Below, one piece after another: positions 6,117-51,600 of a DNA stretch of 64,000 nt (position 1 is its first letter; the number at the start of each line of letters is the position of its first letter). Origin of the DNA: an uncultured Candidatus Saccharibacteria bacterium (GTDB lineage: Bacteria; Patescibacteriota; Minisyncoccia; Phycocordibacterales; UBA6899); contig CAYXYK010000004.1 in the NCBI GenBank assembly GCA_964469335.1, forward strand, positions 101,362 to 165,361. Reading direction: 5' to 3'. The notes beneath the pieces are model-generated. The model saw nothing but the letters and a program-made list of their open reading frames with translations, was not told the origin of the DNA and searched no databases. The translations under genes were made by a program, and so were the position numbers.

Positions 6117-6126
6117 AATGGATGTG

Positions 6127-6696: not shown

Positions 6697-6718
6697 TGCT
6701 ACAGTATAAGCGAACAAC

Positions 6719-22145: not shown

Positions 22146-22146
22146 G

Positions 22147-29114: not shown

Positions 29115-29178
29115 AAATCCAAATGATGTCCACTGGATCACTGTGGCGACATCACGGTGAGTTTTCGTTATTGCATAG

Positions 29179-29184
29179 TATAAT
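29179..29184 (+). promoter_or_regulatory. -10 element TATAAT 6 nt upstream of ATG (leaderless transcript predicted)
   Basis: The sequence is catagTATAATatttgcATG. Confidence 0.45.
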
Positions 29185-29190
29185 ATTTGC

Positions 29191-30903
29191 ATGAGGTCTT
29201 CGCGTATGTTCACACGTATACTTTTGTTTTTCGTCGTGGCACTCACCGGGACACTCTTCCTCCCGGATGCGGTCGTTGCTGGTCCGACATATTTCACTAG
29301 TGATTTGATCACCGACTCGACACCTGCGGGCACGTCGACAACGCATACGGTGACGTTCAATCCGGGTCTCGCGATACCGACTGCTGGAAAGATCATGATC
29401 ATTCCTGAGCCGAACGGCGGAGGGGTATTCACTGTTCCTCCCGCACTCAACCTTGCTGATATCACACTTGAAGTATCCGCAGGAGGAGGACCGTTCGTCG
29501 CGCGTCCGCTTGCGCTTCTTCCTTCGGGTGTCAGCGACGGGGTGACAGTCACCACAGGTGTGAACGGTTTCATCACCTTCGACCTCGCGACCGGTGTTCC
29601 TGGGATCGCCGCGGGCGACACGGTAAAAGTCACAATAGGCGGAGCGAACTTCATCACTTCGCCAGCGGTGCAAGGTTCCTATCGTATCCGCATCCGTACG
29701 TTTGACGCTGCGAGTCTCCCACTCGATGTCGGAACCGCGATGATCGCCATCGTCGAACGGGTCACCGTCACCGGCGACATCCAGGTCATCGTTCCACTCC
29801 GCTCGAACGGTTTGCCGACGGGCCTCCTGCCTGGTGCGACAACGAATGTCCTAGTTTCCTTGAACACTGACATTCCTGCATTCTGTAAATATGCGACGAC
29901 TTCAGGAGTCGATTTCTTCGCGATGTCGTCGACGACGATATTCCTCGACGCGAATGCGGGGCTCCTCCATTACATCAATGTGCCGGTGTTCGAGAACGAT
30001 ATCTTCACATACTACCTTCGCTGCGTGAGCTCGAATGGTAATCCGAATCCCGATGACTACGTGATCACATTCGAGATCGGTGTCATACCGAACGCATCGA
30101 CAACGCCCCTCCCTCCGCCTCCGCCCCCGACTCCCTCAGGTCCGTCGGGTGGTGGCGGGGGAGGAGGGCTGTTCCTCAAGGGCGGAGATGTCACTATTTC
30201 TGGTACAGGAATTCCGGGCGGCGCACTGACCATTCTCAAGGACGGTAAGATCGCAAAGGAAGATCAGGTCTCCGTTACCGGCTCGTTCACGAACGCATTC
30301 ACTCAGCTCGACCGCGGTACGTATACGTGGGGAGTCTACGTGAAAGACCCTGACGGTAATCTCTCCTCGACCTACAATTCCACGATCTATCTCATCGGCG
30401 GTACCAACAATATCATCGCACCGGTTTACCTCTCTCCGACCATCAAGGCTGCCACTACGACGGTGCCTATCGGGGGATCGCTCCTGATTTCCGGCTACGG
30501 TATCCCGCTTACCACGGTGCAGGCGATCATGAACAAGCAGGGAGATGTGCTGAACTCGAAGATCATCACCGGGACGACCACATCGAACGGGAACGGTTCA
30601 TGGAAGATGGTGCTTTCGACCGAAGGACTAAAGAAGGGAACCTATGAAGTGAAGGCACAGTCGCTTGTGACGACCAGGGACCAGAGCGTCTTTTCCCCGA
30701 CCCTCTACATCGGCGTAGGCGAGAACCCCAATCCGAATTTCAAGAATCGCGCAGATCTCAACAAGGACGGCAAGGTCAACTTGGTCGACTTCTCTATCTT
30801 GCTTTTCAATTGGAAGACGAGTGATGCGGTCGCTGATATCAATCAGGATGGGACGGTGTCGCTGATCGACTTTTCGATCATGCTCGCCAACTGGACCGGC
30901 TAG
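29191..30903 (+). CDS. secreted multi-domain protein with C-terminal type-I-like dockerin
   Basis: The protein has a signal peptide, beta domains, a Pro-rich then Gly-rich linker (PPPPPPTPSGPSGGGGGGG) and Ig-like modules. It ends with the two-segment dockerin DLNKDGKVNLVDFSILLFNW ... DINQDGTVSLIDFSIMLANW. Confidence 0.75.
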   Translation: MRSSRMFTRILLFFVVALTGTLFLPDAVVAGPTYFTSDLITDSTPAGTSTTHTVTFNPGLAIPTAGKIMIIPEPNGGGVFTVPPALNLADITLEVSAGGGPFVARPLALLPSGVSDGVTVTTGVNGFITFDLATGVPGIAAGDTVKVTIGGANFITSPAVQGSYRIRIRTFDAASLPLDVGTAMIAIVERVTVTGDIQVIVPLRSNGLPTGLLPGATTNVLVSLNTDIPAFCKYATTSGVDFFAMSSTTIFLDANAGLLHYINVPVFENDIFTYYLRCVSSNGNPNPDDYVITFEIGVIPNASTTPLPPPPPPTPSGPSGGGGGGGLFLKGGDVTISGTGIPGGALTILKDGKIAKEDQVSVTGSFTNAFTQLDRGTYTWGVYVKDPDGNLSSTYNSTIYLIGGTNNIIAPVYLSPTIKAATTTVPIGGSLLISGYGIPLTTVQAIMNKQGDVLNSKIITGTTTSNGNGSWKMVLSTEGLKKGTYEVKAQSLVTTRDQSVFSPTLYIGVGENPNPNFKNRADLNKDGKVNLVDFSILLFNWKTSDAVADINQDGTVSLIDFSIMLANWTG

Positions 30904-31026
30904 CAGTTCGAAATTGAGCGAAATACTTCGTTGAAACGCTGTTGAGCGCCTCGCCTTACACGGAGTGAGGCTCGGCCTGCTCTACAGCGTTTCGCCTTGT
31001 ACTTCATCTCAATTTTGAACTGCTAG
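30899..31026 (+). repeat. long nested-hairpin element overlapping the stop codon
   Basis: The outer inverted repeat is GCTAGCAGTTCGAAATTGAG / CTCAATTTTGAACTGCTAG. The centre is CCTTACAcggaGTGAGG, the same core as at 26578. Confidence 0.45.
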
Positions 31027-31224
31027 ATGATAGCTCGCGTCTCGGGTGGGGGGCGCACAAATGAGTTACAAACACCACATACAAAAAATTACTCTGTGAA
31101 TCCACTGGTTCTCCACAATTGTTTTGCAACTATGTTGTGCAAGTTGATTGAAGGGACGTATAATGTAGGTAATAGTTCGTGTGCGTCATGGAGGGACGCA
31201 TTATAAATAATTTGTACTTTTATC

Positions 31225-31731
31225 ATGAGTTCGTTCTTACAAAAACTGAAAGGAAAAGGTGTCGGAGTGACGGAAGACCACACAGCCGAGCCTGTGCATT
31301 CACAGAAATCCGATGTTCCCTCGGGTGTGACGCAACTGCCGGTCGACGTGCAGCAGAGTGATACCGAGATCATCATCTACGCGCAAGTCCCGGGTACCGA
31401 GATCAAGGACCTTGATGTGTCGATCGAGGGTGACAATGATGTCATCACCATCCAGGGTACATCGCGCAGACCCTCGGAGCTTGTTGGCGGTAAATCCGAA
31501 GAGGAAAGTGCCGTCATCATCAAGCAGGGTCGCGTCGCAGGACACGAAGACTTCACGCTCGAAGAATGCGCGTGGGGGAAATTTTTCCGCCAGATCATCC
31601 TTCCCCAAGAGGTTGATGCGGCATCAGCTCAGGCAAAAGTGAAAGATGGCGTGCTCGCGCTTCATCTTCCTCTCAAAGGTCATGCTACCAACAAGATGCG
31701 CATGCATGTCGAGCGCGTCGATTCTGTATAA
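31225..31731 (+). CDS. Hsp20/alpha-crystallin family small heat-shock protein
   Basis: The protein has the ACD core (DVQQSDTEIIIYAQVPGTEIKDLDVSIEGDNDVITIQG ... FRQIILPQEVDAASAQAKVKDGVLALHLPL). Confidence 0.85.
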   Translation: MSSFLQKLKGKGVGVTEDHTAEPVHSQKSDVPSGVTQLPVDVQQSDTEIIIYAQVPGTEIKDLDVSIEGDNDVITIQGTSRRPSELVGGKSEEESAVIIKQGRVAGHEDFTLEECAWGKFFRQIILPQEVDAASAQAKVKDGVLALHLPLKGHATNKMRMHVERVDSV

Positions 31732-31746
31732 CGACACACTTGCACG

Positions 31747-33261
31747 GTGAGTCCGTGCGCGCGCGACCATAGTATGCTGAAATCCTTCACGAGAATAGAT
31801 TTGCCCAAGTTCCTTCTCGGAGCGGTTTCGATTTTTTTCATACCGACTTTTGCGCTCACACAGACAGGAGCATCACTTTCTATCTCTCCGGACAGCGGGA
31901 CGTTCGCGGCGGGGAAGACATTCACCGTCAATATCGTCATCGATTCTGCTGATGGGTTCAATACCGGCAACGCGACGCTCAACTACGACCCTGCGGTACT
32001 CTCTGCGACCGGCGTCTCGAAAGGTAGTTCCGCTTTCTCCCTCTGGGCGGTCGAGCCTTCATTCGACAACAGTAAAGGTACGGTCAGTTTCGAAGGTGGG
32101 AATACCTCACCTCTCACCGGCAAGAAGACCATCCTTTCCGTCAGCTTCAGGGGCCTCACTGAAGGAAAGACTGACCTTTCGTTCTCGGCAGGTTCCGTGC
32201 TTGCGGCGGATGGAAAGGGTACCGATATTCTCGGTGCAAAGAACGGTGCCTCTTTCACGATAGGAGCAAAAGAGCTTGCAGTTGAGCCGCCTCCCGCACC
32301 TCCTGCAGCGCCGACAGACACTGGTGGAGGAGGGGGCGTGAAGCCCGACGCTCCTATCGTTTCTTCTCCGACACACTCCGACGAGAGTCTGTACTACAAT
32401 GCGAAGAAAGCAAAGTTCACTTGGGATCTTCCTCCGGATGTCACGGTCGTGCGACTCGCGCTCGACACAAGCGGAAGTACTACTCCAACGACGAACTATG
32501 ATCCCGCGATCAGCGAAAAGGAATTCGATCAACTCACCGACGGAGTGATGTATTTTCATTTGCGATACAAGAACGACGGCGGATGGGGTCCGGTCACACA
32601 CAGGAAGATCATGGTCGATCGTACTCCGCCTCCGGCGTTCGAGGTTGAAGCGACCACGGATGCGTCATCGTCGGATGTCATTCTTAAGTTCTCTGCCACA
32701 GATACTCTTTCGGGTATAGATCATTACGAACTGACCGTAGACGGCGGGACTCCGGTGAAGGCCTCACTTGCCGAACTTCTTTCGGGAGAATACAACTTGA
32801 CCGGTCAAGAATTGGGTGACCACAAACTTAAGGTCGCAGCTTTTGATAAAGCGGGGAATGCGGGTGAAGGAGCAGCAAATTTCAAGATCACCTACGACGC
32901 AGAGGCGGCAAAAAAAGGACTCGACGAGGGAGAGGCGAAGCCCACTGATTGGCGACTGATCATCGATATCGTTCTGGTCGCGTTCATCGCATTCCTGCTC
33001 GGGTATCTGTGGTATGAGCGCGGTGCGTTCCTACATGAGAAATATGTCTCGAAACGCGAAGCGGACGAAGTGCGCGACAATCTTGGCAATATCTTTGCTG
33101 CTCTCCGTGAAGAGGTGGGAGAGCAGGTCACCTATCTTTTCGACAAGCCCAATCCCTCTGCACTCAACAGGGAAGTGCTTGGGAACATCAATGAAGCGAT
33201 TGATCTCTCGGAAGAGCTACTCTCCAAAGAAGTTGAGGACGTTCGTAAGTTACTTTCGTAA
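31747..33261 (+). CDS. membrane-anchored cohesin-domain protein (scaffoldin-like)
   Basis: A signal/TM precedes a cohesin-like domain (LSISPDSGTFAAGKTFTVNIVIDSADGFNTGNATLNYDPAVL ... FSLWAVEP ... GTVSFEGG). A Pro-rich linker, Ig/Fn-like domains, a C-terminal TM (LIIDIVLVAFIAFLLGYLWY) and a cytoplasmic acidic tail follow. Confidence 0.7.
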   Translation: MSPCARDHSMLKSFTRIDLPKFLLGAVSIFFIPTFALTQTGASLSISPDSGTFAAGKTFTVNIVIDSADGFNTGNATLNYDPAVLSATGVSKGSSAFSLWAVEPSFDNSKGTVSFEGGNTSPLTGKKTILSVSFRGLTEGKTDLSFSAGSVLAADGKGTDILGAKNGASFTIGAKELAVEPPPAPPAAPTDTGGGGGVKPDAPIVSSPTHSDESLYYNAKKAKFTWDLPPDVTVVRLALDTSGSTTPTTNYDPAISEKEFDQLTDGVMYFHLRYKNDGGWGPVTHRKIMVDRTPPPAFEVEATTDASSSDVILKFSATDTLSGIDHYELTVDGGTPVKASLAELLSGEYNLTGQELGDHKLKVAAFDKAGNAGEGAANFKITYDAEAAKKGLDEGEAKPTDWRLIIDIVLVAFIAFLLGYLWYERGAFLHEKYVSKREADEVRDNLGNIFAALREEVGEQVTYLFDKPNPSALNREVLGNINEAIDLSEELLSKEVEDVRKLLS

Positions 33262-33367
33262 CTGGCAAATTTCGTCGTTGCGGGTCCCATGCAATTCAGT
33301 CAACGTACTGTGAGTAGGTCTTCTTCATTGCATTTCCCGCGCCTCGAACTTTATCCAGTTATGAAAG
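33252..33367 (+). repeat. structured intergenic element, copy A (core GTCAACGTACTGTGAGTAGGTCTTCTTCAT)
   Basis: The flanking inverted repeat is CTTTCGTAACTGGCAAATTTCG / CGAACTTTATCCAGTTATGAAAG. The inner stems are gcggg/cccgc and atgcaat/attgcat. The core differs from copy B at only 3 of 30 positions. Confidence 0.45.
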
Positions 33368-33645
33368 AACTTGAATAAGTATTTAAAATTTTCCAATCAA
33401 AATTTGAGGGAAAAATCAATAATTTTTTGCACATTTTTTCTGAAAAAACGCTTAGATGGTAAGAATTTTTTCAAAGTGCAGTGAGATGCAAAAAAATCTG
33501 TGGACAACTCGTGTTGCTTCCACGAAAGCCCTCAGTTGAGCCATGGTTTAAGAGCGATTTTAGCCCTATTTGAAGCCGTATTTTGGCTTTTTTCTGGTAA
33601 AATTAAGCCTAGCCAATCCTTTTTGGAGGAGGGGTGTGTATTTTC

Positions 33646-36600
33646 ATGTACCGACGCCTACGAACCTATGCACGAAGAGTGATTCACGCGTTTTCAACGC
33701 GCACGAGAGTCGCCTCAACCCTACTTTTTCTGGTACTCAGCGGATGGCTTGTATCGCAGTTCGTTCTTGCCCAGAAGGAATTGAATGTCTACATCTTTCC
33801 GTCCGCAGTGACGAGTGATGGATGGAACGACGATATTCAATCGCTCAGCCAGGATCTTTCTCCTGACGCAACGCTTGCGAATTTCACTACACTCAATTCA
33901 GCATCCGTTTCGTTCGGGTCTCTGGGCGCGGCTCCTGTCGCGACCTCATCGGTTCCCGGCGTGCCCACACCATCAGAAAGCGATCTGAGTACTTCGCTTG
34001 AGAACGTACTTCCTACTACCCCGTCTGTGGTGCCTACTGCACTCCCACTCAACGGCAACGATGAGCCGATCCTCGTTCCTGCAGTGGGAGAGGCGACCAC
34101 ATCTTCGGTGATCAGTCTTCCTAATCCCTTCGTTCCTGTCACGCCGCTACCTGAGAGCATCACTGCCTCATCTGCACAATCACTAAATCTATTGCCGGAT
34201 ATTCTGACCGATTTATTTGGCGTGAAGAAAGTGCTTGCACAAGAGCATGCTTCAGCGACGCCCAATGTGAGTGTGTCCGAGACTACGACCCCTGTTGTGA
34301 TGAATCAGGAAGGAAATGCCAGTGCCACTTTGCCAACTGTACCGGAACCTTACGTCCCCACCCCGATGTCGGCTGATCCCTATTCTGTCGCTTCATGTAC
34401 GACACTGGGACTCACATGCCACCTCATGACCTTCGTCGGGTTCGGGCTCGGAGATGCCTTCTCATCCCACCCGCTCACTTCAGCGACACTTGAGCTTTCT
34501 GTTGCGGGTCGTTCAGAGCTTTCCGCCCTGCAGCATGACCGATTGTTGGTTCGTGTATTCCATGCAGGTCGTTGGGAATTCCTTGGCGAAACTGAGATCA
34601 AGGGTGAACTTTCGAATGCAAAACGCGGAGGCTACCTTTCGTATGATCTTCCTGAGATCGCTGATTGGAAAGACCTTTCGGACATGAAGGTTGTTGTTGA
34701 GTATGCGCGCGAAGGTGAAGGGAATGCATCGCTCCTCATCGACGGTGTGTGGGTGAATGCGAAATACGGTACTGATAGCATCTCCGCCGATGCGACACCT
34801 GAAGAGATCGCGCTCTCGCAGTCGAACGTACGCAGTACTTTGTTCGCAAAGGACGCAGAAGATCGAAAAGTGAGACGTGACATCCTTGATACTCCGGAAG
34901 GAAGGGAGATCGCGCTTATGCATGCGGATGAGCACGACGATGCGGACATCATCATCAAGACCGACAAAGAGATATATCGCACCCTCGGGAATACCTCTGC
35001 ATACTTCAATGTCACCAACCAAAGCGACAAGGAACAGGTCGTTCGGCTGCAGTTCCATTTTCCTGAGGGTGGCGGCGGAGTTGCATCATTGTCCCGCCTT
35101 TCTCGCTCAGTCCCGTACAAAGTAAGTAATCTGAAATACGATTCCGTCGGTTACTTCTGTGCAAGCGGATGGCAGAGCGCCTCGTCGACCGACACGAAAG
35201 GATTTACTTGTGTTGATATGAATGAGACCCGATCTTGTGATGCGCTCAACGACGATAAGACGAACTGTATCGTCAGTGGTGCGCGAGTCGGGCTCACAGA
35301 AGACATCGAATATCGTGACGGATGGGTTCCTAGCGCTCTTCTACAGGGCTCGTTCCGTGATGATGCGGGCATCTTCGCCAAGGCGATCGACCTCATTCTC
35401 GGTAAGTTGCCTTCGGGAGCGATCCCTCCTTCTGAACAGCCGGTCTCGTACATCGAGAATTCGGTACTTCTTCTCCCGGGGCAGACTGCATACCTTCGCG
35501 CAGATCTTGCGCTCCCACTCAATGGACGCGGGGATTTCTATATCGAGGGAGCAACGGAGAGCGGTGCGTACGGTCTCGTTCATGCCGCATGGGATGGTTC
35601 ATGGAACTACCGTGTGCCCGTTGATATCGATAACGAGAAAGTCGAGACTGAAGACTCGTATGCCGTCCCGGTGTCGCTCGACTCGCTTCCGCTCGCATTC
35701 TGGGACAGGGTCAACGCGGACGGCTCGGATGTCCGTTTCGTTGACGAGACCGGGACGCAGGAACTCCCGTACTGGCTCTCTTCGTGGAAATACGAAGACC
35801 GAAAAGCATTCGCCTGGGTGCGAATCCCGAAGACGAGCAATTCGACCACTACGCGCATCTATGTGTACTACGGTGATCATAGTGCCGCTTCCCGCTCGTC
35901 GCTCACTGCTCCGTTCCGTACCGATAGGCTCACTTCGCGCGCGGTGATCGCAGGCTCGAGTCAGCATGATATGACACTACTCGCAATCGCGCTCGATGAA
36001 GATACGCACATCCAAGCGGGGGAGCATGAGCCAGTCACTCTCAAGAAGGGAGAGACTGCACTCTTTGGGTCGCTCGCACCGGGCGATGTAGTCCAAGCTG
36101 ATGGGCCGATATCTCTTTCGCTTGAGTCGAGCGGTTCAGGTGCGACGGTCGTTCCATACGGATATACTGGCGGCAATTTCGTTATTCCGGGAATCGGCGG
36201 TGAGCGCATCCTTTCGATGACTGCCGTCGAAGATGGTGAGGTGCACACGGAGCTCAAGCGAGGGAGTGCTACTTCGACAACTCTCGATCCGATTGCAGGG
36301 ACGATCGTTTCGGATACGGTGGATCTCGACAGTTCGATCCGTGTCGATGCGGCAAGTGATGTCATGGCACTCCTTTCTGCGGGGGATGGCACGCGCCTTA
36401 CCCCGCTTTATCCGTCGACCGATGAACCGCTTTATGGTTTCATGCTCGGAAAGACAGTGGTTGGATTCGGAACAGACGGATCGACGATGAAGGCGGTGTG
36501 TGCCGGAGGTGCGGTCAAATCCGCCGACGGACGTAGAGACGGCATGATGACCGTCCTCGATCATTGTCAAAGTTCCGTTCTTCCTTCGCTCGCCGACGCA

Positions 36601-39600
36601 GTCCGTATCAGTGAGTTGGCGAATCCCGCGTCGGTGTTGTCCCTCGGAGGAGAGATGTTTACGAGTTTCATTCCGAAAAGCGAGTTCGCTTCTTCATACG
36701 TGCTCGCCGAAGATGCCGGGACTCTCGCATTCATTTGTGCTCCCGAGGACGGTACCATCGATATCGGTGTTTTCGACGCAGGTGGCGCGTTCACTGCATC
36801 CACCACTTGTGAAGCGCGCGGTGCACGACCGGGCAAAGCACTGATCGAAAGCGCGAACGGTTTCCATGCCGGATCGATCGTCCGCTCTCTCGATGCGACT
36901 TCTACAGTGTTCATGGCAGCATATCAGGCGCTCGGACGTTCACTTGCTTCAGGTGAAGTTGCACCACTCACCACACTTTACGGAGCTCCCCAGTTACGAT
37001 CGCATTCACCGAACCACCCGAGAGTGACCACTGGCGAAGAGGAATTCGTGATTCCCGGCGAACACCGCAAACTCGATCTGGACGAGGAGGGGAAGGAACG
37101 TGTACATGTCGATAAGTTGCTCACTACTAAGCGTGAGTTCTCTGTACACGAACAGCCGGGATTCCAGTTCCAGTACACTCCGCAATCGAATTCGGTGGTC
37201 CAAGGAGTGAGAGGAGCGTTCGGTGTCGCGCAATTCTCGGTCACGAAGGTTTCCCTTCGTCATGCGCAGATCGGAGAACTGGAAGTCGAATATGACATCG
37301 GATATGGAGATGACAATATCTGGTCGCTTTCACTCAAGAATGTCGATGGTCATCTCCGCCCCGGGAAGTACACGCTCCATGTGGAGATCGAAGAAGGAGG
37401 AAGCACATATGTCGATGAGTATGATTTCTACTGGGGAGTACTTGCGATCAATTACAACAAATCGATGTTCACTCCCGGAGAGACAGCCAACATCTCGATC
37501 GGGGCACTCTCGGATAACGGCAATACGATCTGTGATGCGATACTGAAACTTTGGGTCACTCCTCCTGGAGGCACGGAGATCGAACTCCCTGTGTCGGCAT
37601 CCGGACTCTGCGACGGAAACAATGTTGTCGATGTGCCTGATTATTCATCCAGCTATTCCTTCTCCAGCGAGAATGCAACAGGTACGTACAAGGTGAAGTT
37701 AGTGCGCTTCGACAGAGAAGGAAATATCGCGAGCCAAGTGACAGACACCATCTCAGTCAAAGATTCAGTCCCTTTGAGTATCGAACGCGAAGGACCGACA
37801 CGCATCTATCCTGTAGCACATTATCCGATGAAGATCCGTGTTACCGCAAATGAGGATTTCAAGGGTAATATCATCGAACGCCTCCCCGGTGATTTCGTCG
37901 TGATTGATCGAGGAAGTGCGGAGCTCGCATGGGGAGACAGTGAGCATAGCTACATGACCGCAACATGGCCGGTCGACATGAAGAAGGGTGCTGTCGTGAC
38001 TTTTGCATACGAGTTTGATGCACCCGATCGCTCTCCGTATCTTTATGAACTCGGACCAGCAAGCACAGACGGAGACGTCGTATTTTCTGAAGCGCGCAAA
38101 TGGCAGATCGCTTCGGACGCAGCCGGGAAAATGATGATCTATTGGGACCGTACCTATACTCCCTCTGGGTGGACATGCATCTCATGTCTTCCATCCGATG
38201 TGTTCTACAATCGTTTTGCGATGGGGTCATCGACATATGGCGGGTTCGGTGGGACGGCGACCCACACACCGACAGCTTCCGCGGCAGTCGCGTCATTCGG
38301 AGGTACGGGTGTCGGACCAAACACAACCAATAACACCAACAACGCTCCTCTCGGACACACCCATACATTGACTCCACAGATTTCTGGAGTATCGAACCTT
38401 CCCACCTACAGACAGCTCGCAGTCCTGCAATCCAATAGCGCAGGCGACCCGGCTTCGATCCCCGGAGGAGCGATCGTCATGTTCGATATTGCATCATCGT
38501 CGCTACCGTCCGGTTGGTATCGCTACACTCCACTCGATGGCCGTTATGTGAGAGGACAATCAACGAGCACGACAGGTGTGACTGGAGGAGCGAATACCCA
38601 CTCGCATACTGCGACAGGCACACTTTCTGTAGCGATCGGGTCAGGACTTCGCGAACAGAACGGAGTGGTGAACGGTGCAACTGACGTGAATCACACCCAT
38701 ACCCTTTCCGCGACGAACACCGATGTGCTTTCGAATGAGCCGCCGTATGTTGAAGTGCTGTTTGCGCAGCAACCGGCGACGTCGACACCGGTCAATTATA
38801 TGCTCACTATGTGGGAAAATACCCCGCCGAGCGGATGGACGACACTCTCAGATCCGGGAGGTCCGCTCGAAGGGAAGTTTCTCAAGGCATCTACGACCTA
38901 CGGACTGACCGGTGGTTCGGCGACACATGCCCACGCGGATATATTCGGGGCGACCACATCGGTGCAAAGTCTTCTGAATAACTACACGGCAAACGTATCG
39001 AATGCACAGGCTCCTGCAGCACATACGCATACTGTTGACATCACTGGTTTTTCCACCGATGACCATCGACCTCCATATGTCGAGGTGATCTTCGCGAAAC
39101 GCCTCTCGGGGGTCACATTGTGGACACAGCAGCAATATCGCTGGTACTCAAACACGAACGCGATCACTCCGGTCGACCCATGGCCACCGACAGGAGGTGA
39201 TCTCGGAGAAGATTCGGCGATCGACGGCGGCTCACTTGCTGTTCGGGTCGGTGATGTGCTCAGACTTCGCATGTCGATACTCGCGATGAATTCGACCTCA
39301 ACTGTCGGAAGTCAGGCGTTCAAGCTTCAGTATGCCGACTCGCTTGATTGTCCGAGTGCGCTCAATTGGGACGATGTCGCTCCGATGTCTTCAACGACCG
39401 CAGAGTGGCGAGGGTACAATAATGGCGCTGTGGCCGATCGCGCGACGCTTCCGTCCACACTGCTCACGCTTTCGAATATCGCAGAAAGTTATACCGAAGA
39501 GAATAACTCTACCAGTACCTCCGTCGAGATCGGAGTCGGGCAGGCAGGTGAGTGGGATTGGGTGCTGCAGTCGAATGTTCCGCTTCCGGGTACCAATTAT

Positions 39601-42600
39601 TGTTTCCGCATGGTGAAGTCTGACGGAACTCCTCTCGACACAAATGACATCTATCCGGAAGCGCTCACCAACTTTGCTCCGAACGCAACAGTGCTCGCTT
39701 CACCGTTCGATAACGAGAAGATTTCTTCCACTACCCCATATTTAGTGTTCGCTTCGGCTGATCCTGAAGTGAATGACCTCGACTATGAAGTTCAGGTTTC
39801 CGCCACCAGTGATTTCGCTTCATCGATCGTTGACGTGGATTCGACCGTGAACCCTGAGCTTTTCGACAACGTACCGAATCCGACCAATAAAGCTCCGTTC
39901 AGTTCTGGAGATCAGATCCGTTATCGTGTAAGTCCTGCGCTGACGAACGGGAATACCTATTGGTGGAGGGTTCGCGCGAAGGATCTCTCTGGGTCGAATG
40001 CGTGGAGCTCCTGGTCGGCTGGAAGATCGTTCACTGTTGATACTGCGGTTACTATTTCCACATGGTTCCAGACCACTCGCGATCAGTTCGAAACGGACGG
40101 ACAGACGAACGTTGACGCTACGTCGACCGTAGCGAATGATGTCATGTTGATTGCTGGTCAGACAAGCGGCGTGCTCTATTCACCACAGATTGATCTCGAT
40201 CAGGCGACTCTTGGGACCGCCTGGGGCACACTATCGTGGAATGACTCTGAGGTCGTCGGGGACATCAAGTATCATGTGCAATACCTCGATGCGACTTCGA
40301 CGTGGGTAGATATTCCTGACTCAGGACTCTCAGGTAACTCTGCAGGATTCGATACCTCACCGATCTCACTGCTCTCAGTGGATCCCAATACCTATACTTC
40401 GATACGTCTTGCGGCGAACTTCACGAGTGTCGGAGGTTCCCCCCGTCTCTTCGATTGGACCCTTTCGTGGGGTTACAAAGTGACGACTCCGGTCATCAGC
40501 ACTCCGTTCGACAACGCCAAGGTCTCAACCACGACACCGTCATTCGACTTCGTTTCGACCGACCCGAACGGTGACCCGCTGACGTACGAGATCTCATGGT
40601 CTACAGACACCGCATTCTCGGCGTCGACCACTCGAACCTCAGATTTCAATCTCGGATTCCAGAATCTCACCACCCCGAGCGACACTGACCCGTATACGTC
40701 CGGCGAGAACATCCGTTTTACCGTGAGAGCGAGTGATGCGCTCACCAATGGGACAACCTATTACTACCGAGTCCGCGCGAAGGACCCGACTGGAGGGAAT
40801 GATTGGTCGTTCTGGTCTGACACACGCTCGCTTACCGTGGACACTTCGATCACCGTGGCAACCTGGTTCCAGAGCATGACCGGGCAGTTCAACACAGACA
40901 CACTCACCAGTATGTACAACTATGGCCTCGGTTCTTCTACTGTTTCGACATCAACCACCGAGGCGATGATCGCATACGGAGAAGGCACTGTGCAGACTCC
41001 CCGTTACCGCATCTGGGGAGGGACCGCATGGGGGAGCGAGTTTTCTGCCCTCTCCATCAATTCTAGTGTGCAGTGGGTCGTGCTCAAGGCATCCCCGGTC
41101 ATCGGTGAGTATATGATGGGAACGCTCGGGTCTGATCGTGATATCAATTTTCAGATATACAATAACGGTACTTGGGGGAACATGAATGAGATCACGACGA
41201 ATGCGCCGCCTGTGACTCGTCGGTCCCTCGACATCGCCTACGAGACGATTTCCGGACGCGCTCTTGCTGTCGCATGTGACGGTGATGCCGATCCATCATA
41301 CGCGATCTGGGACGGAACGAATTGGGGAAGTACGCAAACGATAGACCTTGCAAGCGCGAACAATTGTGAATGGATAAGACTTGCGTCGAATCCGGTCACC
41401 AACGAGATCATCCTCCTCGAGAGAAATACCGGTAATCTCTATCAGGCGGCGGTATGGAATGCCACATCTTCTACTTGGGGCACGACGACGAATATGGGAT
41501 CTATGTCCGAGATCGCACATGAGGGCATGGCACTTGAATATGAGGAAAGTGGAGACACTGCACTTGCGATCACGTCGAACACCACGAACTCCAGTTTTGT
41601 TTATAAGGCATACAAAGCAGGGGCATGGTCAGCATCGACGACAGTGACGCTCGGTGATGACTTCGAATGGGGAACGCTCGTTCGTGATCGTGGCACTGAC
41701 CGTATGGCACTCTGCTATGTCGATGAAGACGGTGATATCGGAATGAAACGCTGGGATGGGGGAGGATGGGTCGCGACCACTACCGTCGTCGAACTCGAGA
41801 CAGCGCCGACATTGACCGAGAATGAAGGACGCCCAGTCGACTGTGCATTCGAGAATACCACAGGAAGGGATACTTACATCATGACCTCCTACAGTGACCT
41901 CGTTGGAACCCGCTATCAGACATGGAACAACACCGCATGGGGCCCAGAAGCAAGCATTATGCCGGTGATCCGCAACTTCACTACTCAGTTGAGACGCACG
42001 GATGATAATAAGATCTTGGGTGTGTGGTTCGATTATCTCAATGGTGACTATTACACATCATCATGGAACGGCACGACATGGTCAGCGACCACCACCATCG
42101 AAACCAGTGCAAGTGTCACTGCTACGCCGTATGGTGAGCCGTTCATGATCGCACCCAAACTTCCGGCAACCAGAGGAACCATCGTCAGTTCGCCGATCGA
42201 CTACGATGATGGCGCATCACCCGCTTGGGATCAAGTGCTCTGGTCTAAGACCACCCCGGGACTAAGTACCTTCAAGGTGCAGGTCGAGTACTATGACAGC
42301 GCATCGTCATCATGGAAGCTCATCCCGGACACGGATCTCTCCGGTAACTCGAGCGGCACTTCGACCTCACCCATCAGTATCCGCAATCTTGATACAAGTA
42401 CATATAATCAGATCAGACTCGTTGGTAATGCGACCTGTGTGCTCGGTAATTGTCCTGTACTCAATGATTGGACAGTGAAATGGTCCGCGGGGCTCAACAT
42501 CTCCGGTACCGCGAAGCAGCAAGACCTCACGACGAATGTCACGAGCGGAACGGTCGCAGTCGCAGTCAACGGTGTGCTTCAGGCAGGGAAGACCGGGACC

Positions 42601-45600
42601 ATCTCAGCGGGGACCTGGACGATCCCGAATGTCACTTTCTTCCCAGGAAGTACGCTCACGGTATTCGTCTCTGGCGCGGCGACCTCTGCACGTGCCGTCG
42701 CGGTCGCAGTCTATGACGGCCCTGGAGATTTCGGAGGTATGTCCCTCAATGAACACTGGCTCACCGTCGGCTCCGCATCAGGAACTCTCGCGACGACCAC
42801 ACTCACCAATCTCAGTAAGTATGACAACTCGGTTGCGGGGGGTACGGACGTCTTCTACGATGTCACCGCCGGTGGAGACTATAACCACTGCGCGATCGCG
42901 GTTCCTGCAGGCTGCTATGATTCAAGTCTATACCTACTTGCTGAAAACATATTCAGTCCGTCGACCTCGACCGCAAAGACGCTCACCACCTACAACATGC
43001 GTATCGCCGGGAGCATGTACCTGGATGCGAACACGCTTAAGGTCGGAGCATCGTGGCGAAATCTTGGCGGCTTCACTCCAAATACCGGAACGGTCATGTT
43101 CAATGCGACTACTTCGACGCGCACGATCGATAATACCGGTGCGGCAACTTCGACATTCGGTAATGTGACATTCGGCGAGGTGGCGACGCTCGCAACGTGG
43201 ACTTTCTCGACCCCATTCGTGGCGACAGGAACAGTAGCGATGAACTTCGGTACGACCTCTCCCGGGGCACAGTCCATGACACTTCTCGGCGACCTTACGA
43301 TCGGTGCTTCGGGAATTTTCGCGAAAGGAAGTGCGACGACGACCTTCAGTGGAACACAGTCAAAGACGTGGACCGACAATACTGCGGCGAAGCAGGATCT
43401 CGGTAATGTTGCGATCAGCGGCACCGCGAAGACGGTCACACTCGCCTCATCGGTCAAAGCGACAAATATCAATATTGTAGCCGGGAATACCCTCAATGCA
43501 GGAGGTGCGAATACGTTTTCAGTGCTCGGTTTCTGGGATAATGCAGGGACGCTCACACCACAGACTGGTACGGTCGCATTCATCGCGACATCGTCGTCGA
43601 AGACGATCAACCAAGCATCATCGAATTTCTACAACGCGACATTCAACGGAGTCGGTGGTGCTTGGCGATGGCTCAATACCAATGCGACGACGACGAATGA
43701 CCTCACGATCGCGACCGGCACGCTCACCCTTCCAGGAGGAACACTCGAGGTCGGCGGCTCATTCGCGAATACTGGAGGCACATTCGTCAACAATTCAGGG
43801 ATCACCAAACTGACCTCTACTGCAGGAGGGAAGACGATCCAGACCGGAACCTCGACGTTCAATGATCTGGTGTTCAGCGGTTCCGGCGGCGCTTGGAGTT
43901 TCGTAGATGTGAATGCGACCACATCTGGGACACTGACAATACTTGCAGGAACTCCGACTTTCCCATCCGGAGTACTCGAAGTTGGAAATAATTTCATCAA
44001 CTCCGGAGGCACATTCGTCGCGAATGGCGGAACGCTCAAACTTACATCCTCGCTCAATTCACGTACGATCACATTCGGCGGTTCTTCGCCAGCGAACCTC
44101 ACTGTGCAGAACGCGGGCGTGTTCACTGTCACCGACACGAATGCAACAACGACAGGAAATGTGAATTTCGTCGCTGGCACCACCACGCTTCCCGCCGCGA
44201 ATTTCGTCATCGGAGGCTCGTTCACAAACACGGGCAGGTTCACCGCAGGTACGAACCTTGTGACGTTCAATGCAGCGTCCGGTGCGAAGACGATTAACCC
44301 CGGTGCCTCATCATTCGCATCAGTACTCTTCAGCGGTGCCGGCACGTTCACGGTCTCCGCAAATGCAACAACGACGAATGATCTCACGATTTTCTCAGTA
44401 GGCGGCTTCACACAGTCGAGCGGAACGACGCTTGCGGTAGGAGGACAATTCACCAATCAGGTCGGCGGTGCTACCACGACCTGGTCCGGCTCTACTCTCG
44501 CGCTCAACTCGGGAACTGCATACAGTATCAATACCAAGACGACGGGTGGAGATCTCTATGGCACACTGCGACTCGCTGCCAATACGCAGATCCGCTCTTG
44601 GAATTCATCCTCGACAGTCTATGTGCTCGGCACTTCCGCAAGTCTCTATTCGCAGAACCATAATAGTGTTTCCGGAGAAGTGGACATTTTCGGTACATAC
44701 ACTCGTACATCCGGTTCGGACTACTGGAGCTATGCGACGGACTTTGATGGCACAGTCCTCGGATCTCCCCGTCAGGCAAACGTACGTTTCGATTCGGGTG
44801 CGACAGCAAGTTTCGCTGCCGGTACGACACTAGAAATCCTCGGCTCAGCAACTGCATCAACTTCGATCGACAGAAAGTCGAGCGGTAACTATGGGGTCAC
44901 CCTTTCTTCGTCGACGATCAACGCGCAGTATTATCAGTTCCGCAACATGAATGCGTCCGGGCTCACCCTGAATTCCTCTACGACGGTCACCTCGCTCGCG
45001 AACGGTGATTTCACGATCGACCTGAATGGCGCGTCAGGAATGACGGTGGCATCTTCGACCATCGACACCAATCCTGGATTGCAGCTCTTCAATGTGAGAT
45101 TCGCGACTTCGACAGGGATCTCAGCTGGATTCAACGTGGCAGAAACTGGAGCCGCGACGTCTTTTTGGAGATTCAAGAATCACTATGGGAACTACGCTGG
45201 TGAAGCTTACGATAGCGACCCTGGTCCATCATCAGGGAACCCCGGATATGTTCGATGGGACGACAGTAATTTCGTCATTTCGATTTCTGGCACAGTCTAT
45301 TCCGATGCAGGATCGACCCCGATGGGGGCACCGACCTGTGATGGAGTGACCAATACTGTGCGCGTGAAGGTCTCGGGCCAAGGTAATTATGCCGCACCAT
45401 GCGCCAATGGCAGTGGTGTGTACACCGTTTCCGGAGTGACATTCACCGGTGATAATGTGATGACGGTGTATCTCGACACCAATGGTGGTGCACAAGCGGT
45501 CGCGGTCACCAAGTCTGCTTCGGCGGACCTCACTGGAATCGATCTCTATCAACATCGTGTCATTCTTCGCCACGAAGATACGTTCCCGATGTCGATCGCT

Positions 45601-48600
45601 GACATGAAAGCATACGACAAGACCGGTGACACGGACATCCCGTTCATCGCGGCAACTTCGTCCGTGCCATACACACTCACTACTGATCCGGATACGCAAC
45701 TCTGGGTTTGGAATTCCAAGACCTTCATCCCGGGAGGGAATATCACGCTGAACTCAGGAGGTTCGGGGCAGACCTACGACGGATCACTCATCTTGAGTGC
45801 GAACTCAGTGTTCACCGCACAGGGGACAGAAACTCACTCGATCGGAGGCGGTTTCAGCGCGAATGCAGGTGCCGTGTTCACTGCCGCGAATTCGACCTTC
45901 AATTTCACTGCAACGACAACGGGGAAGAGCATCATTGGTGTGGCACCGCTCACGTTCTGGAGGATGAGTTTCAGCGGTTCGGGTGGTGGGTGGGTGATCA
46001 ATCAGGCGCTCACGGTCGGTGAGAATTTCCTCCCGAATGCAGGAACAGTTTCCGGAACAAGCAACGTTACCGTGAGTGGAACGACAGTTTCAGGAGCCGG
46101 TTCGATCGCGATGACCGGCGGGACTTTCACTCTTTCGAACGGTGGCACATTCGGAGGGAATAGTGATTGGTCGTTCAACAATCTCACCTTTGGCAACGGA
46201 ACTTTGGCAACAACAACGAAGACCGGGTCGTCTACTGTCACCGTCGCAAGCGTCCTTACTGATGCCGCCAATCAGACCTTCCAGGCCGGAACATCGACCA
46301 CCTGGGTGCTCACTGGTGGAGGAACCCCGCTTGTTCTCTCAGGTACGTTTTCCGTTCAGAATGCAACGTTCCGCTATGCAGGCACGAGTGCGACGAACGT
46401 GACTCCCGCCACATATGCGCAGCTCGATTTCGGAGCGAGCGGAGTCTCTTCCCCGGTCTATACCTTGCTATCGGGAACTTTCAATGTCGGTGGGGCATGG
46501 AATGTCGGAGTGGTTGCGACGAATACCGTCACGGTGAATGCGAACACCAACGATCCGACACTTACGCTATCAGGCAACGTGAACGTTGTCGCTTCATCTA
46601 CCTTCGTACTATCCAATACTGGCTCACTCACTGCACGAAGGAATTGGACGAATCTCGGAACGACGACTGCGTCCGGAGGAACCGTGACTTTCGATGCGAC
46701 GACGACAGGCTTCACCATCTCAGCGGGCGCATCTCCGTTCGCAAATGTCTCGTTCAATAATTCTAATGGTGGTTGGACTGTTGTAGGGAACGCTACCGCG
46801 ACGGGGAACTTCACACTCTCCGCACTCGCATCGTTCACACTCTCGCCGAATGCGACACTTGAAGTCGACGGTGTCTTTACGAACGGTATCGGAGGGGGCG
46901 CGACCACATGGACCAATTCGACGCTATACCTCAATGCGAATGCGGCAGAAACGATCAACACCAAAACGACGGGCGCCGATACATATGGAACATTGCTCAC
47001 TGGCGGCACAACGCAAGTGCGCGTGTGGAATTCATCAGCAGCAACTACAACGACCAACAATTCGAGCAGCGTCTATTCGATGAATCATGCGAATGTCTCA
47101 GGGGCGCTCAATATCTGGGGCACATACAATCACTCAAGCGGCACCGACTACTGGGATTACGCGACTGACTTCGATGGTGTGTCGATTGCGTCAACTTCAC
47201 GTGTCGTGAACGTACGTGTCGCTTCGAGTTCTTCTCTTAATTTCTCAGGCGGACAACTTGAAGTACTTGGTGCATCCGGTGCGACGACGACGATTGACGT
47301 ACTGACAACCGGCGGATATTCATGGAACATCACCGGCGGAGTGGTCAACATGCAGTATTACAAGATCCGAGGTATCGACCAGAACGGACTTTCGATCTCG
47401 GGCTCACCAACGGTCTCAGGGCTCTCCAATGGAGATTTCCTGCTTGCGGTGAACGGCGCTACCATGATGACAATCGCGGGCGGAACTATCGACGCGAACC
47501 CCCTAAAGACCTTCTTTGGAATGAGTTTTGCTACTTCAAGCGGCATCACGTCAGGGTACAACATTACTGCGACCGGTGTGTCCGGCTCAGTGTGGACCAT
47601 AAGCGGCCTATCGGGGAACTATGCCGGTGAAGCGCGAGACAACGATCCGGGTGGTGACCCAGGATACATTCGTTGGGACGATTCCGCCGCACAGATCTCG
47701 GTCTCAGGAAATGTCTACAGTGACGAAGGTCTAACACCAATAGGGGGACCCGTGTGTGATGGAGTGACACAGAATGTGCGCCTCAAGGTTCAAGGTGCGG
47801 GTTCGTATACTTCGGCATGTAATGCAGGAACCGGTGCATTCTCGATCTCGAACATCATCTATAATCCGAAGGATACACTGACACTCTATCTTGCATCGAC
47901 GACCGGTGTGCGAGCGGTCAATATTGCCTACGATCCCGCGACCAACATCACGAGCATGAATCTTTACCAGAACCGTATCATCCTCAGACATGAGCAGGGC
48001 AGTGCGGTCGGCATCGCTCAGATGGCGGCATATGACAACAACAAAGACAGTGCGATCCCGTTCATTGCGACGACGACCGTTGCGACCTCGACGACCGTAT
48101 TCGCGGGCACAGGACTCATTGTCTGGAATTCGAAGGTTTTCGCACCTGGCGGAAATGTCACGCTCCATGCGAATGCATCAGGAAATAGCTGGGATGGATC
48201 GGTGCACCTGTTGGCGACATCGACATGGAGTTCATCAGGGACAGAGTCGTATACAATCGGAGGATCGTTCGCAGCCGACACTTCCGCGTCAGTGGCACCC
48301 GCGAACTCGACATTTAATTTCACTGCAACAACAACAGGAAAGTCTGTTTCCGCTTCGAATACTCTCACTTTCTACAACCTCACTTTCAGTGGCGCCGGTG
48401 GGGCATGGAGTATCCCCGGAGTCTCGACAACGTCGAATGATCTCACTATCTCCGGAGGCACCCTCACTCTTCCCACGGGGACACTCTTCGTCGGAGGAAG
48501 TTGGAACAATTCAGGCGGGGCATTCGTGGCAAGCGGCGGCACCGTAGAGTTCATTGCGACGGCGAGTGGGAAGAACATTCGCACAGGTACTTCAGCGTTT

Positions 48601-51600
48601 TGGAATACCACGTTCTCGGGTACGGGTGGCGCATGGACATATCTCGACACGAATTCTACTACTTCAGGTACCACGACAGTGACGGCAGGGACACTGACGC
48701 TTCCTTCGGGCGTATATGCGGAAGGGAAGAGCTTTGACGTACGCTCCGGGTCGGTAAGTGCGAACGGTGGTACACTCAAGATGATATCGACGTCGACCGG
48801 ACAGACGGTCAGGCTTTCCGGTTCATCACTCGCGAACCTCTTGGTCGCCGCGACAGGCACATTCCAATTCCTCGACAGTTATGCGACGACGACAGGAGAT
48901 GTTTCGCTCACGTTCGGAACGACGACGTTCCCTTACGCGGCACTCACGATTGGCGGTTCGTTCTCCAATTCGGCGGTATTCAGTGCGGGAACCTCGACAC
49001 TGGTGATGAACGGCAGCGTTGCGGGGAAGACGATCTCACTCGGGAATTCATCGCCGTACAATATGACGATAAACGGTGCTTCGGGAGGATTCACCGTTTC
49101 GGGAAACGCGACAACGAGCAATAATTTCAGTCTCATTGCAGCGAGTACATATACACAGAGCTCAGGTACTACGCTTGCGGTCGGTGGCGTCTTCACGAAT
49201 TCGGTCGGTGGCGCTCCGACCACATGGTCAGGAACGACGCTCTCGCTTTACGGCACATCGTCGAATTACAGTATCAACAGCAAGTCGGCGGGAGGTGATG
49301 CATATAACATCATCCGCCTCGCGGCGAATACCAATATCCGCATGTGGAACTCGTCCGTTTCGACCACTCAGCTAGACCCCGCCTCGAGCATCTATTCACA
49401 GAACAATGCGGCGTCCGCCGGCTCACTCTATATTTACGGTAACTATACTCGTTCTTCGGGGACCGACTACTGGAGCTATGCGACTGATTTTGATGGAACC
49501 GCACTCGGCGGCTCATCACGGCAGGCGAATGTTCGCTTCGATGCGAATGCTACTGCGACATTCCAGAACGGTGCGACACTTTCGATGCAAGGCAGCGCGA
49601 CCGCCTCGACGTCAGTTGATCGTATCTCGAGCGGTAGTTATGGCATCACACTCGATTCATCGTGGTGGACCGCACAGTACTATCAGTTCCGCAACATGAA
49701 TTCGACCGGGCTCAATCTCACAGGCACAACAACGATCTCGATGAACAACGGTGATTTCTCGCTCGATGTGAATGGGGGAAGATCGATCACCGTATCATCC
49801 ACCACCATAGATCAGAATGCCTCACAGCAGTTCTTCTACGTGAAGTTCGCGACTTCGAGCGGCATCACCTCAGGGTACAACGTACTTCGAACGGGAACCA
49901 CGACGAACTCGTTCACCTTCAATTCCGAGTATGGAAACTTTGCAGGGGAAGCATTCGACAATGATGGTGCTGATGGTTGTGGTTCTATCAGGTGGTCAGA
50001 TAGTGCATGCCTTATCTCTGATCAGCGCGGATATCGATGGAGAAATGATGATGGCGCAGAAGGTGCACCTTCGTCCGAGTGGTACAACCAGAGCTGGACG
50101 AAGCGCGAGCGTATCCGCATCGTCAATAATGCAACCACGTCTTACACCAATGAGCAGGTAAAACTTGATATTCCTTACGATTCGGATATGAAGAGTAATT
50201 TTGATGATATCCGTTTCACTGACTCATCGGGTACCACCAGTATCCCGTTTTGGACCGAAAGTTACCTCACTTCTGCGACCGCTACCGTATGGGTGAAAGT
50301 GCCGTCACTCCCGGGGTCCGGAACTGCTGATATCTTCATGTACTTCGGTAATTCCGGTGCGTCTTATGCTGGCTCGGGCACCTCGACATTCACGTTCTTC
50401 GATGATTTCGAAGACGGTAATCTGAGTGAATACACTGGCAACACTACGCTGTTCTCCAATGATGCGACATTCAATTATGAACGCACATACGGTCTTGCTG
50501 CATCGGCAGGAAATACCGGAGCTCAGAATACCAGCGGTATCGGTCAAGCATCGGCAGGAGTCGGGCGTGATACAACCTTCCGTTTCAATCAGTATATCGA
50601 CATGACAAGTGGCGGCTCGGACGAGCCCTGCTTCTTGTTCGCGATCCAGCCCCCTATCACGGGACATCAGAACTACGGTGTCTGCCTCTCTCCGTTCGGT
50701 GCTGATCATCTCGTGGTCGCGAAGAACGTCTCATGGAACGGACGTGCGGCAAGTGACGGCTCGACACTGCTCGTATCGAAAGCGGTCACATATACGACGG
50801 GTTGGTATCAGGTTTCCGTTGATTGGATCGCAACGAACAATCAGATCAATGTGAATGTGTACGACAATACTGGATCGCTATTTGCGACCGCGACGACGAC
50901 CGATTCTACTTGGACCTCAGGTGGTGTCGGCTTCACATTCTGGGGAATGCACGGAGGATGGGATATTCCGTTCGCACGTACATATAACTACCTCACACCG
51001 TCGTATGCACTCTTCACCAAGCAAGCAGATTCCGGTGCAACATGGGCAGCTGCAGAGAACACATATCTTCCGAATTATGTGCAGAATCAGAATGTCCGCC
51101 TGCGCTTCTCGGTACGCAATTCATCACTCGCACCTCTGTCGGAGAACTTCCGCTTACAATATGCTGCAAAGCTCGCATCTCCGAACTGTGAGTCAGTACC
51201 GACGGGGAACTATAGTGATGTACCGACCACCTCGGGAGGATGCGGAAGCGCCGCGGCATGTATGACCTCATCAAGCCAGTTCACCAAATCATCTTCGACG
51301 CAGCTCTTGACCTTCCCGAACGGCTACACGTTCACCCAGGCACAGATCCTCGAGGATCCGAACAATCAGACCGACAACATCTCTCTTTTGGCGAATGCGT
51401 TCACTGAAGTCGAGTACAACATCCAGATGACGAACAATTCGTCACTCGACAGATATTGTTTCCGAACCACGAATGCCGGCACACCGCTCGACAACTATAC
51501 CCGCGTTGCTGAGATTCAAGTGCTGCATCCTCCGACACTCTCGAATTTTAGCTTCAATCAGAACTCGGATATTGCGCTCACCGAAGGAACGACCACCTCA

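Follow-up and report, generated by a model that had tools for sequence, protein, structure and literature searches.

A class-wide dockerin-cohesin gene pair in a conserved envelope gene cluster of Paceibacteria that probably fastens a non-enzymatic protein to the cell surface

A 64,000-nt stretch of DNA from an uncultured Candidatus Saccharibacteria bacterium (GTDB class Minisyncoccia; contig CAYXYK010000004.1), hereafter the window, carries on its forward strand the neighbouring genes of a secreted dockerin protein of 565 aa (29206..30903) and a membrane-anchored cohesin protein of 495 aa (31774..33261), termed dockerin protein 1 and cohesin protein 1. An initial annotation, made from the letters alone, had suggested that the two form a cohesin-dockerin pair outside a cellulolytic context. 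Taking all evidence together, we consider it probable that the dockerin protein docks onto the membrane cohesin within a surface or adhesion apparatus. According to this model, cohesin protein 1 would be a type I membrane protein displaying its single N-terminal cohesin on a Pro-rich linker and a stalk of two immunoglobulin (Ig)-like domains. Its neighbour, which comprises four β-sandwich domains and a two-repeat Ca2+-binding dockerin, would be exported via its Sec signal peptide and plug non-covalently and Ca2+-dependently into the cohesin, so that docking would keep this Ig-rich protein attached to the surface of the cell. The pair would constitute one module of a larger envelope cluster, including WxLIP-like and FGE-like membrane proteins, an HSP20 protein and a DUF2341 protein of ~6000 aa, that most likely builds a surface or adhesion structure and not a polysaccharide-degrading machine. 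A second pair at 61922-64000 is expected to work alike.

Both open reading frames (ORFs) of the initial annotation, 29191-30903 and 31747-33261, are present on the forward strand, but their starts had probably been placed too far upstream. Position 29191 is an in-frame ATG five codons upstream of 29206, and 31747 is a GTG nine codons upstream of 31774. The ATG at 29206 is probably the true start because a 100% identical database protein (P0121) comprises 565 aa, and the ATG at 31774 likewise because a 99% identical one (P0001) comprises 495 aa.

Dockerin protein 1 begins with a signal peptide, which is followed in the N-terminal part by two β-sandwich domains (aa 26-185 and 199-291). A Pro/Gly linker (aa 295-323) leads from these to two Ig-like domains (aa 327-408 and 425-504), and the dockerin module (30733..30900, forward strand) comes last. 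At its extreme C-terminus this protein matches Pfam Dockerin_1 (PF00404) with 34.3 bits (E 2.7e-8), the gathering cut-off being 22.9 bits. The module includes two F-hand repeats with the Ca-binding loops DLNKDGKVNLVD (30754-30789) and DINQDGTVSLID (30835-30870), each followed by DFSI(L/M)L. The twin Ca loops that had been read from the translation are therefore located, and their Asp/Asn spacing holds on inspection: the two tandem 12-residue loops are perfect fits to DxNxDGxxxxxD. A six-frame scan of the 64-kb window found only four matches to this pattern, two in dockerin 1 and two in the protein encoded from 61922. Dockerin 1 is compact, with 27 residues from the first Asp of loop 1 to the first Asp of loop 2, and it resembles solved type I dockerins by sequence (2y3n_B, E 1e-4; 4fl4_A; 1daq_A). 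Moreover, the module is the best-conserved part of its protein. Both loops are invariant in an alignment of 29-35 orthologues, which includes the residues D517, N519, D521, N525, D528, D544, N546 and D555, and every Ca ligand is kept. One orthologue (locus L050, 7649-9454) carries half a dockerin with a single F-hand repeat (ADLNSDGKVNLTDFSILLFNWTG), which could have arisen from a deletion between near-identical repeats or from assembly collapse.

The structure of dockerin protein 1 predicted with AlphaFold2 (AF2) has a predicted local distance difference test score (pLDDT) of 82.5 and shows the four β-sandwich domains and the Pro/Gly linker. Its matches among PDB structures are headed by the archaeal S-layer protein 7ptp_A, followed by complement MG domains and SiiE, all of them multi-Ig or S-layer proteins of a generic kind with no enzyme among them. 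The cargo carried by dockerin 1 is thus made up of four Ig-like β-sandwich domains with only 2 Cys. Of the Ig-like and Cys-rich cargo that had been proposed, the Ig-like part applies to this protein, but the Cys-rich modules belong to the second dockerin protein, encoded from 61922.

Cohesin protein 1 is composed of a signal peptide, a cohesin domain (aa 31-165; 31864..32268, forward strand), a Pro-rich linker, two Ig-like domains, a transmembrane (TM) helix (aa 393-414; 32950-33015) and, on the cytoplasmic side, a helical tail of 81 aa (33016-33258). Its match to Pfam Cohesin (PF00963) scores 32.7 bits (E 1e-7; gathering cut-off 24.1 bits) and covers profile positions 9-125 of 139, and a precomputed PF00963 match is present in most of its homologues. 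An AF2 model based on a 40-sequence alignment reached a mean pLDDT of 82.4, with values >90 across the cohesin β domain (31-165). The remaining parts of the model are a signal-peptide helix, a disordered Pro-rich linker (168-186), the Ig-like domains (190-372) and two C-terminal helices, 393-456 with the hydrophobic part at 393-414, and 463-494. Hydropathy and these helices agree with the C-terminal TM segment and cytoplasmic tail that had been read from the sequence. When searched against the PDB with Foldseek, the model matched the cohesin structures 6kge_A, 5nrm_A, 6kgc_A and 4dh2_A at target-normalised TM-scores of 0.68-0.76 and root-mean-square deviations of 2.5-3.0 Å. The top match, and the best for the whole ectodomain, was 2w1n, a module of cohesin and FN3 from Clostridium perfringens GH84C. 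Hence the cohesin domain, predicted from sequence at the outset, stood up both to the profile and to the structure search.

The motifs SKxGSAFSLWxxEP, FEGG and AADGKGTD of cohesin 1 are invariant in the family alignment. However, the most conserved region of the protein is not the cohesin domain but the cytoplasmic tail, with a mean top-residue frequency of 0.71 vs 0.63 for the domain and with 11 invariant columns. The tail has no Pfam match, and a PDB sequence search returned nothing better than E 0.46. No SLH match was found; the anchor is the C-terminal TM helix together with the cytoplasmic tail. One cohesin per protein was found here and in all paralogues inspected; a multi-cohesin scaffoldin was not seen.

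To place the pair in its genomic context we followed cohesin protein 1 through related genomes. It has >240 full-length homologues, the named ones coming from Candidatus Lloydbacteria and Paceibacterota, with Lloydbacteria proteins as the closest relatives (56-63% identity). When one genome was scanned for each species, 106 contained it, and those with a name are without exception Patescibacteria (Lloyd-, Kaiser- and Nomurabacteria, the Parcubacteria group and Paceibacterota/Paceibacteria). By these named homologues, the window itself is assigned to the class Paceibacteria of the Patescibacteria, with Candidatus Lloydbacteria as the nearest group. For synteny, the window proteins were compared with all ORFs of 85 loci; duplicates were removed and apparent exceptions were inspected by eye. 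The recurring gene order is p385, a WxLIP-like TM protein, a 147-aa TM protein, an FGE-sulfatase-like TM protein (0-4 copies), dockerin, HSP20, cohesin and the giant DUF2341 protein, and the order of the upstream block is the same in most of the 85 loci. The functional link of the two genes is much stronger than the initial annotation could know: of 57 species-level Paceibacteria loci, 56 have the dockerin gene in front of HSP20-cohesin, and this holds at cohesin identities as low as ~33%. Searches with family-specific hidden Markov models (HMMs) found a single cohesin and a single dockerin in the ±10 kb around each cohesin 1 locus. Downstream of the cohesin 1 gene, the next match is a homologue of the giant protein in 68 of 71 loci. 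In locus L024 the dockerin is masked by N, and the protein still ends in WTG. The pairing in almost every relative examined suggests that the modules probably fasten non-enzymatic surface proteins to the cell. Cell-surface assembly of a "general" kind, as originally envisaged, is not borne out, because the genes form dedicated neighbour pairs within one specific, conserved envelope cluster. Scans for promoters and terminators across 28900-33900 gave no more sites than shuffled sequence and therefore provide no operon-boundary evidence either way. In three Lloydbacteria loci (L001, L002 and L013; 6203-9000) a PmbA/TldD peptidase gene pair, which is absent from the window, lies between the dockerin and HSP20 genes.

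A second pair of the same kind is encoded near the end of the window. The second dockerin protein (61922..63124, forward strand; 400 aa), already named as a dockerin by the initial annotation, matches Pfam Dockerin_1 with 37.1 bits and has its two loops at 62975-63010 and 63056-63091. Its signal peptide is followed by a Cys-rich DUF4215/myxo_disulf repeat, and its C-terminal half, which consists of two Ig-like domains and the dockerin, is 34% identical to dockerin protein 1 (E 1e-32). Only 45 nt after this gene begins that of a second cohesin protein of at least 277 aa (63169..64000, forward strand), which the window end cuts within an Ig-like domain that follows a signal peptide and a cohesin domain. 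The family cohesin HMM scores it with 61.5 bits (E 2.5e-18), BLASTP aligns the initial part of its domain with cohesin protein 1 at 35% identity (E 4e-12), and motifs like those of cohesin 1 are visible by eye in the sequences of its paralogues. Full-length orthologues of the second cohesin protein carry a C-terminal TM helix. This ORF runs off the window end and was hence not listed for the initial annotation, which also overlooked the HSP20 gene, the conserved cluster and the conservation of the tail.

The second arrangement is likewise conserved. In all 17 related metagenome loci that include downstream sequence, a homologue of the second dockerin gene is followed by 1-4 cohesin paralogues; six of these loci have 2-4 further single-cohesin paralogues after the dockerin gene (L087, 7380-10998; L088; L089; L091; L094; L102). 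Upstream, the order p635-p347-dockerin 2-cohesin is kept in L087, L089 and L090; in the window, p635 (58820-60727, forward strand) shares homology of its C-terminal ~190 aa with the C-terminus of the giant protein, and in p347 (60879-61922, forward strand) a signal peptide and a β domain are followed by a TM helix and a basic tail, a layout as in the WxLIP-like protein. Among the cluster-2 cohesin paralogues inspected, nearly all combine a signal peptide and a single cohesin with Ig domains, and end in a C-terminal TM helix with a short tail that is not conserved. Two did not fit this layout, namely one paralogue with a C-terminal hydrophobic stretch below the hydropathy threshold and a short ORF with a cohesin plus a dockerin-like segment. 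In four of the cluster-2-related loci a reverse-strand protein of ~227 aa has a cohesin and, at sub-threshold score, a dockerin-like tail (DINNDGELSIGD ... DQNGDGKVNWAD); tentatively, it may be an adaptor.

The 840 bp that had been noted as separating the two genes of the first pair do not represent empty sequence: dockerin and cohesin genes are neighbours as described, but the gap contains a gene for an HSP20/α-crystallin small heat-shock protein of 168 aa without signal peptide (31225..31731, forward strand; Pfam HSP20 42.6 bits, cut-off 20.8). Its end lies 42 nt from the cohesin 1 start codon, and HSP20 is directly upstream of the cohesin 1 gene in 72 of 72 loci with enough upstream sequence. 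This count includes L028, L033 and L047, where the locus listing shows the gene although an automatic filter had flagged it as absent. The cohesin paralogues of cluster 2 have neither a conserved tail nor an adjacent HSP20, whereas both accompany cohesin 1 in all loci examined. This joint presence and absence is a correlation only, consistent with a link between tail and HSP20 or with some other cytoplasmic coupling. A more ambitious reading, which we regard as unlikely, is that the cluster, conserved across the 106 genomes with cohesin protein 1, represents a dedicated envelope-spanning attachment or surface-layer apparatus of these ultrasmall bacteria, in which the dockerin protein would be a lattice or stalk subunit and the tail would couple the outside to a cytoplasmic partner, possibly HSP20. 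If true, the cohesin-dockerin contact would serve in a device for transmembrane linkage or signalling and not as a passive tether.

Several observations weigh against docking of the dockerin protein onto the membrane cohesin as an explanation of the pair. In the AF2 model, residues 510-565 with the dockerin have a pLDDT of 34-65 and form short helices only, neither Ca2+ nor a partner having been modelled. The sequence similarity of cohesin 1 to solved cohesins is marginal (E >=0.03), and Pfam Cohesin scores the second cohesin with only 14 bits, below the cut-off of 24.1. Despite the marginal similarity, the identification of cohesin 1 as a cohesin is sound, because the fold predicted by AF2 superposes on solved cohesins. 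One locus, L041, truly lacks a dockerin gene upstream of the cohesin. Conserved gene order can persist in the small genomes of Candidate Phyla Radiation (CPR) bacteria without physical interaction of the products. Furthermore, a simple passive-anchor model does not account for the strong conservation of the tail, and dockerin-bearing enzymes could sit elsewhere in the genome, 64 kb being the part seen.

There are two alternative explanations for the pair. The modules might not bind each other at all: the dockerin-like segment would be a Ca2+-binding stabilising or glycan-binding tail, the cohesin-like domain an Ig spacer, and both would be neighbours through a common envelope operon. The low AF2 confidence for the dockerin fits this view, as does the wide occurrence of lone dockerin-like and cohesin-like modules (Peer et al. 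2009, as summarised in PMC9012536), and since the whole cluster is syntenic, adjacency is not specific to the pair. However, dockerin and cohesin are each among the best-conserved parts of their proteins, every ±10 kb locus has exactly one of each, and the order dockerin-then-cohesin arose or persisted twice, in paralogous clusters whose neighbours are otherwise different. By sequence criteria, moreover, both modules fall into families with mutual binding as their only known function, and we judge a lack of binding unlikely. The other possibility is a minimal cellulosome-like degradative system, in which membrane cohesins would recruit dockerin-bearing hydrolases encoded elsewhere, for example against host cell-wall glycans, the Ig-rich proteins being two of many ligands. 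The related loci with arrays of 2-4 more cohesin paralogues and possibly a small cohesin-plus-dockerin adaptor would suit such a system, the top structural match is a cohesin that a glycoside hydrolase of C. perfringens carries, and the authors of a transposon sequencing study in Saccharibacteria speculated that their dockerin protein targets host glycans (PMC10633639). In addition, an exhaustive dockerin profile search, seeded from short contig-end fragments matched by the 62-aa dockerin module and giving matches without domain annotation, detected C-terminal modules on proteins of many lengths (200-980 aa); many of the shorter ones may be contig-end fragments. Against a degradative role, no family of glycoside hydrolases, carbohydrate esterases, polysaccharide lyases or carbohydrate-binding modules (CBMs) was found by Pfam scans of the window, which covered the ORFs of at least 150 aa taken as genes but not the long ORFs nested within these. 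This agrees with the lack of nearby glycoside hydrolases recorded in the initial annotation. The modules on both dockerin proteins of the window, as on their orthologues, are Ig-like or Cys-rich only, and each cohesin protein has a single cohesin with no multi-cohesin scaffoldin seen. A degradative system is, in our view, somewhat less likely still than a lack of binding.

A third reading takes the cluster as a distant relative of the WxL/Csc loci of Firmicutes, in which WxLIP-like membrane proteins would bind the C-terminal domains of large secreted proteins and cohesin-dockerin would be an accessory. Supporting it are four paralogues (20898-23454, 25467-26525 and 60879-61922) that share a signal peptide, a β domain, one or more TM helices and a basic tail. 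Three of them match WxLIP_PGBD (DUF916) weakly, with 24.4, 15.6 and 15.9 bits, all below the cut-off of 27.3 bits; p347 gave no match to this family and is alike in layout only. The large secreted proteins of the window also share C-terminal domains of ~190 aa in pairs, namely the giant protein with p635 (51700-52305 vs 60150-60724; E 2e-13) and p1760 with p385 (20300-20886 vs 24600-25163; E 5e-11). These domains have no Pfam match and may be anchoring or assembly modules. Even at E up to 10, Pfam detected no WxL domain in the last 250 aa of the giant protein, of p635, of p385 or of p1760, and with all WxLIP_PGBD matches below threshold, membership in a WxL/Csc locus was rejected. We consider this relationship very unlikely, and it concerns other members of the cluster, so that it does not compete with the docking of dockerin onto cohesin. 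The likeness to the WxL/Csc loci of Enterococcus and Lactobacillus consists in clusters of secreted and TM-anchored surface proteins with DUF916-like (WxLIP_PGBD) proteins, which are sub-threshold here. To our knowledge, cohesin and dockerin modules are not part of WxL loci.

Docking of the dockerin protein onto the membrane cohesin, the explanation that we favour, can be compared with the cellulosomal type I pairs (Clostridium thermocellum CipA; 1ohz, 4dh2, 5nrm, 6kge). The cohesins belong to the same Pfam family and have the same β-jelly-roll fold, and the dockerins share the duplicated 12-residue Ca loop plus helix and the C-terminal position on a secreted protein. In contrast to cellulosomal dockerins, the one described here is compact, with 27 residues between loop starts, and has hydrophobic residues (LV/LI) at positions 10-11 in place of Ser-Thr. 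The near-symmetry of the two repeats of dockerins allows for a dual binding mode, which the present dockerin may share. Unlike in the cellulosome, the cargo is not an enzyme and CBMs are missing, each protein has one cohesin in place of a multi-cohesin scaffoldin, the anchor is a TM helix with a conserved cytoplasmic tail and not an SLH domain or sortase signal, and the setting, a CPR bacterium, is not a cellulolytic one. Judged within the 64-kb window by enzyme cargo, multi-cohesin scaffoldin and SLH or sortase anchor, the features by which a cellulosome is defined, the system is not a cellulosome.

Use of cohesin and dockerin outside a cellulolytic context is not new in itself, since Peer et al. 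2009, as summarised in PMC9012536, catalogued non-cellulosomal modules in all three domains of life. The present pair resembles those systems in that it occurs in an organism and, as far as the 64-kb window extends, in a locus without cellulolytic machinery. Binding has been verified for non-cellulosomal archaeal cohesin-dockerin modules (PMC9012536). In Archaeoglobus fulgidus and in anaerobic methanotrophic (ANME) archaea large scaffoldins are likewise missing (PMC9012536); the ANME proteins, however, vary between close relatives, whereas here the gene pair is fixed class-wide in a syntenic cluster with HSP20 and the giant protein. The complexes of the C. perfringens GH84 toxins (2w1n, 2ozn/2jnk) also operate outside cellulose degradation, but their modules sit on glycoside hydrolases. 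Within the Patescibacteria, the dockerin-domain envelope protein SEML1_0315 is essential in Southlakia epibionticum (Saccharibacteria), and a role in host interaction was proposed for it (PMC10633639). It is comparable to the present protein as a dockerin-bearing envelope protein of a Patescibacterium, the likeness being one of description only and the organism belonging to another class (Saccharimonadia); neither a cohesin partner nor a conserved cluster was reported for it in PMC10633639. Giant Patescibacteria proteins containing DUF2341/FhaB were proposed as adhesins (PMC11809585), and the 6224-aa DUF2341 protein downstream of cohesin 1 is of the same general kind. For the giants of that study no full-length homologues were found, while the present one has syntenic homologues in 68 of 71 loci. 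PMC11809585 makes no connection between such giants and a cohesin-dockerin pair, and a full-text search on DUF2341 proteins returned giant Patescibacteria proteins but likewise nothing that ties them to cohesin or dockerin.

Some homologues of the two proteins have already been auto-annotated as "cohesin domain-containing protein" or "dockerin type I domain-containing protein". Full-text literature searches, however, returned no description of the Paceibacteria cluster, of a TM-anchored single-cohesin receptor or of the highly conserved tail, and cluster, TM anchor and cytoplasmic tail alike appear to be undescribed. How CPR bacteria or Patescibacteria build their surface and attach to hosts is largely obscure beyond a few cultured Saccharibacteria, and we know of no cultured, genetically tractable member of the Paceibacteria. 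That a cluster present in 106 species-representative genomes contains a textbook plug-and-socket pair offers a handle on the remaining surface complex, including the ~6000-aa protein. It would also widen the range of cohesin-dockerin systems to include a receptor that is TM-anchored, has a single cohesin and carries a conserved cytoplasmic domain.

The remaining genes of the first cluster are all on the forward strand. The conserved upstream block begins with p385 (24009-25166) and continues with the WxLIP_PGBD-like protein (25467-26525), which has two C-terminal TM helices and is the one scoring 24.4 bits. It is followed by FGE-sulfatase-like TM protein A (26707-27648), the 147-aa protein with two TM segments by hydropathy (27751-28194) and FGE-sulfatase-like TM protein B (28191-29114), the Pfam FGE matches in the A/B block scoring 32.2 and 60.3 bits. 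These two FGE-sulfatase-like proteins have the C-type-lectin fold and are TM-anchored, and the number of copies per cluster varies between species from 0 to 4. Downstream of cohesin 1 lies the gene of the giant protein (33634..52308; 6224 aa), which is secreted or N-terminally anchored and contains two DUF2341 domains, an Ig_Rha78A_N domain and long repeats. It is encoded by a single ORF with Gly/Thr/Ser-rich repetitive stretches, and syntenic homologues of ~2900-6250 aa are found in nearly all loci.

Composition along the window is flat (~50-58% GC) without a compositional break, and the window contains no tRNA genes; nothing therefore suggests a mobile island. The stretch of ~17 kb upstream of the cluster includes genes for proteins of 601 aa and 1760 aa that gave no family match in the Pfam scans. 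Elsewhere, the window encodes ABC/MacB/FtsX transporters, a response regulator, a nuclease, a ZIP transporter and a NUDIX protein. On the reverse strand, at 4839-6897, the gene of a LexA-like S24 peptidase adjoins that of a DinB/UmuC-type (IMS) polymerase. This LexA-like/IMS pair, which in the window is set apart from the surface cluster by the ~17-kb stretch, is located just upstream of the cluster in locus L003.

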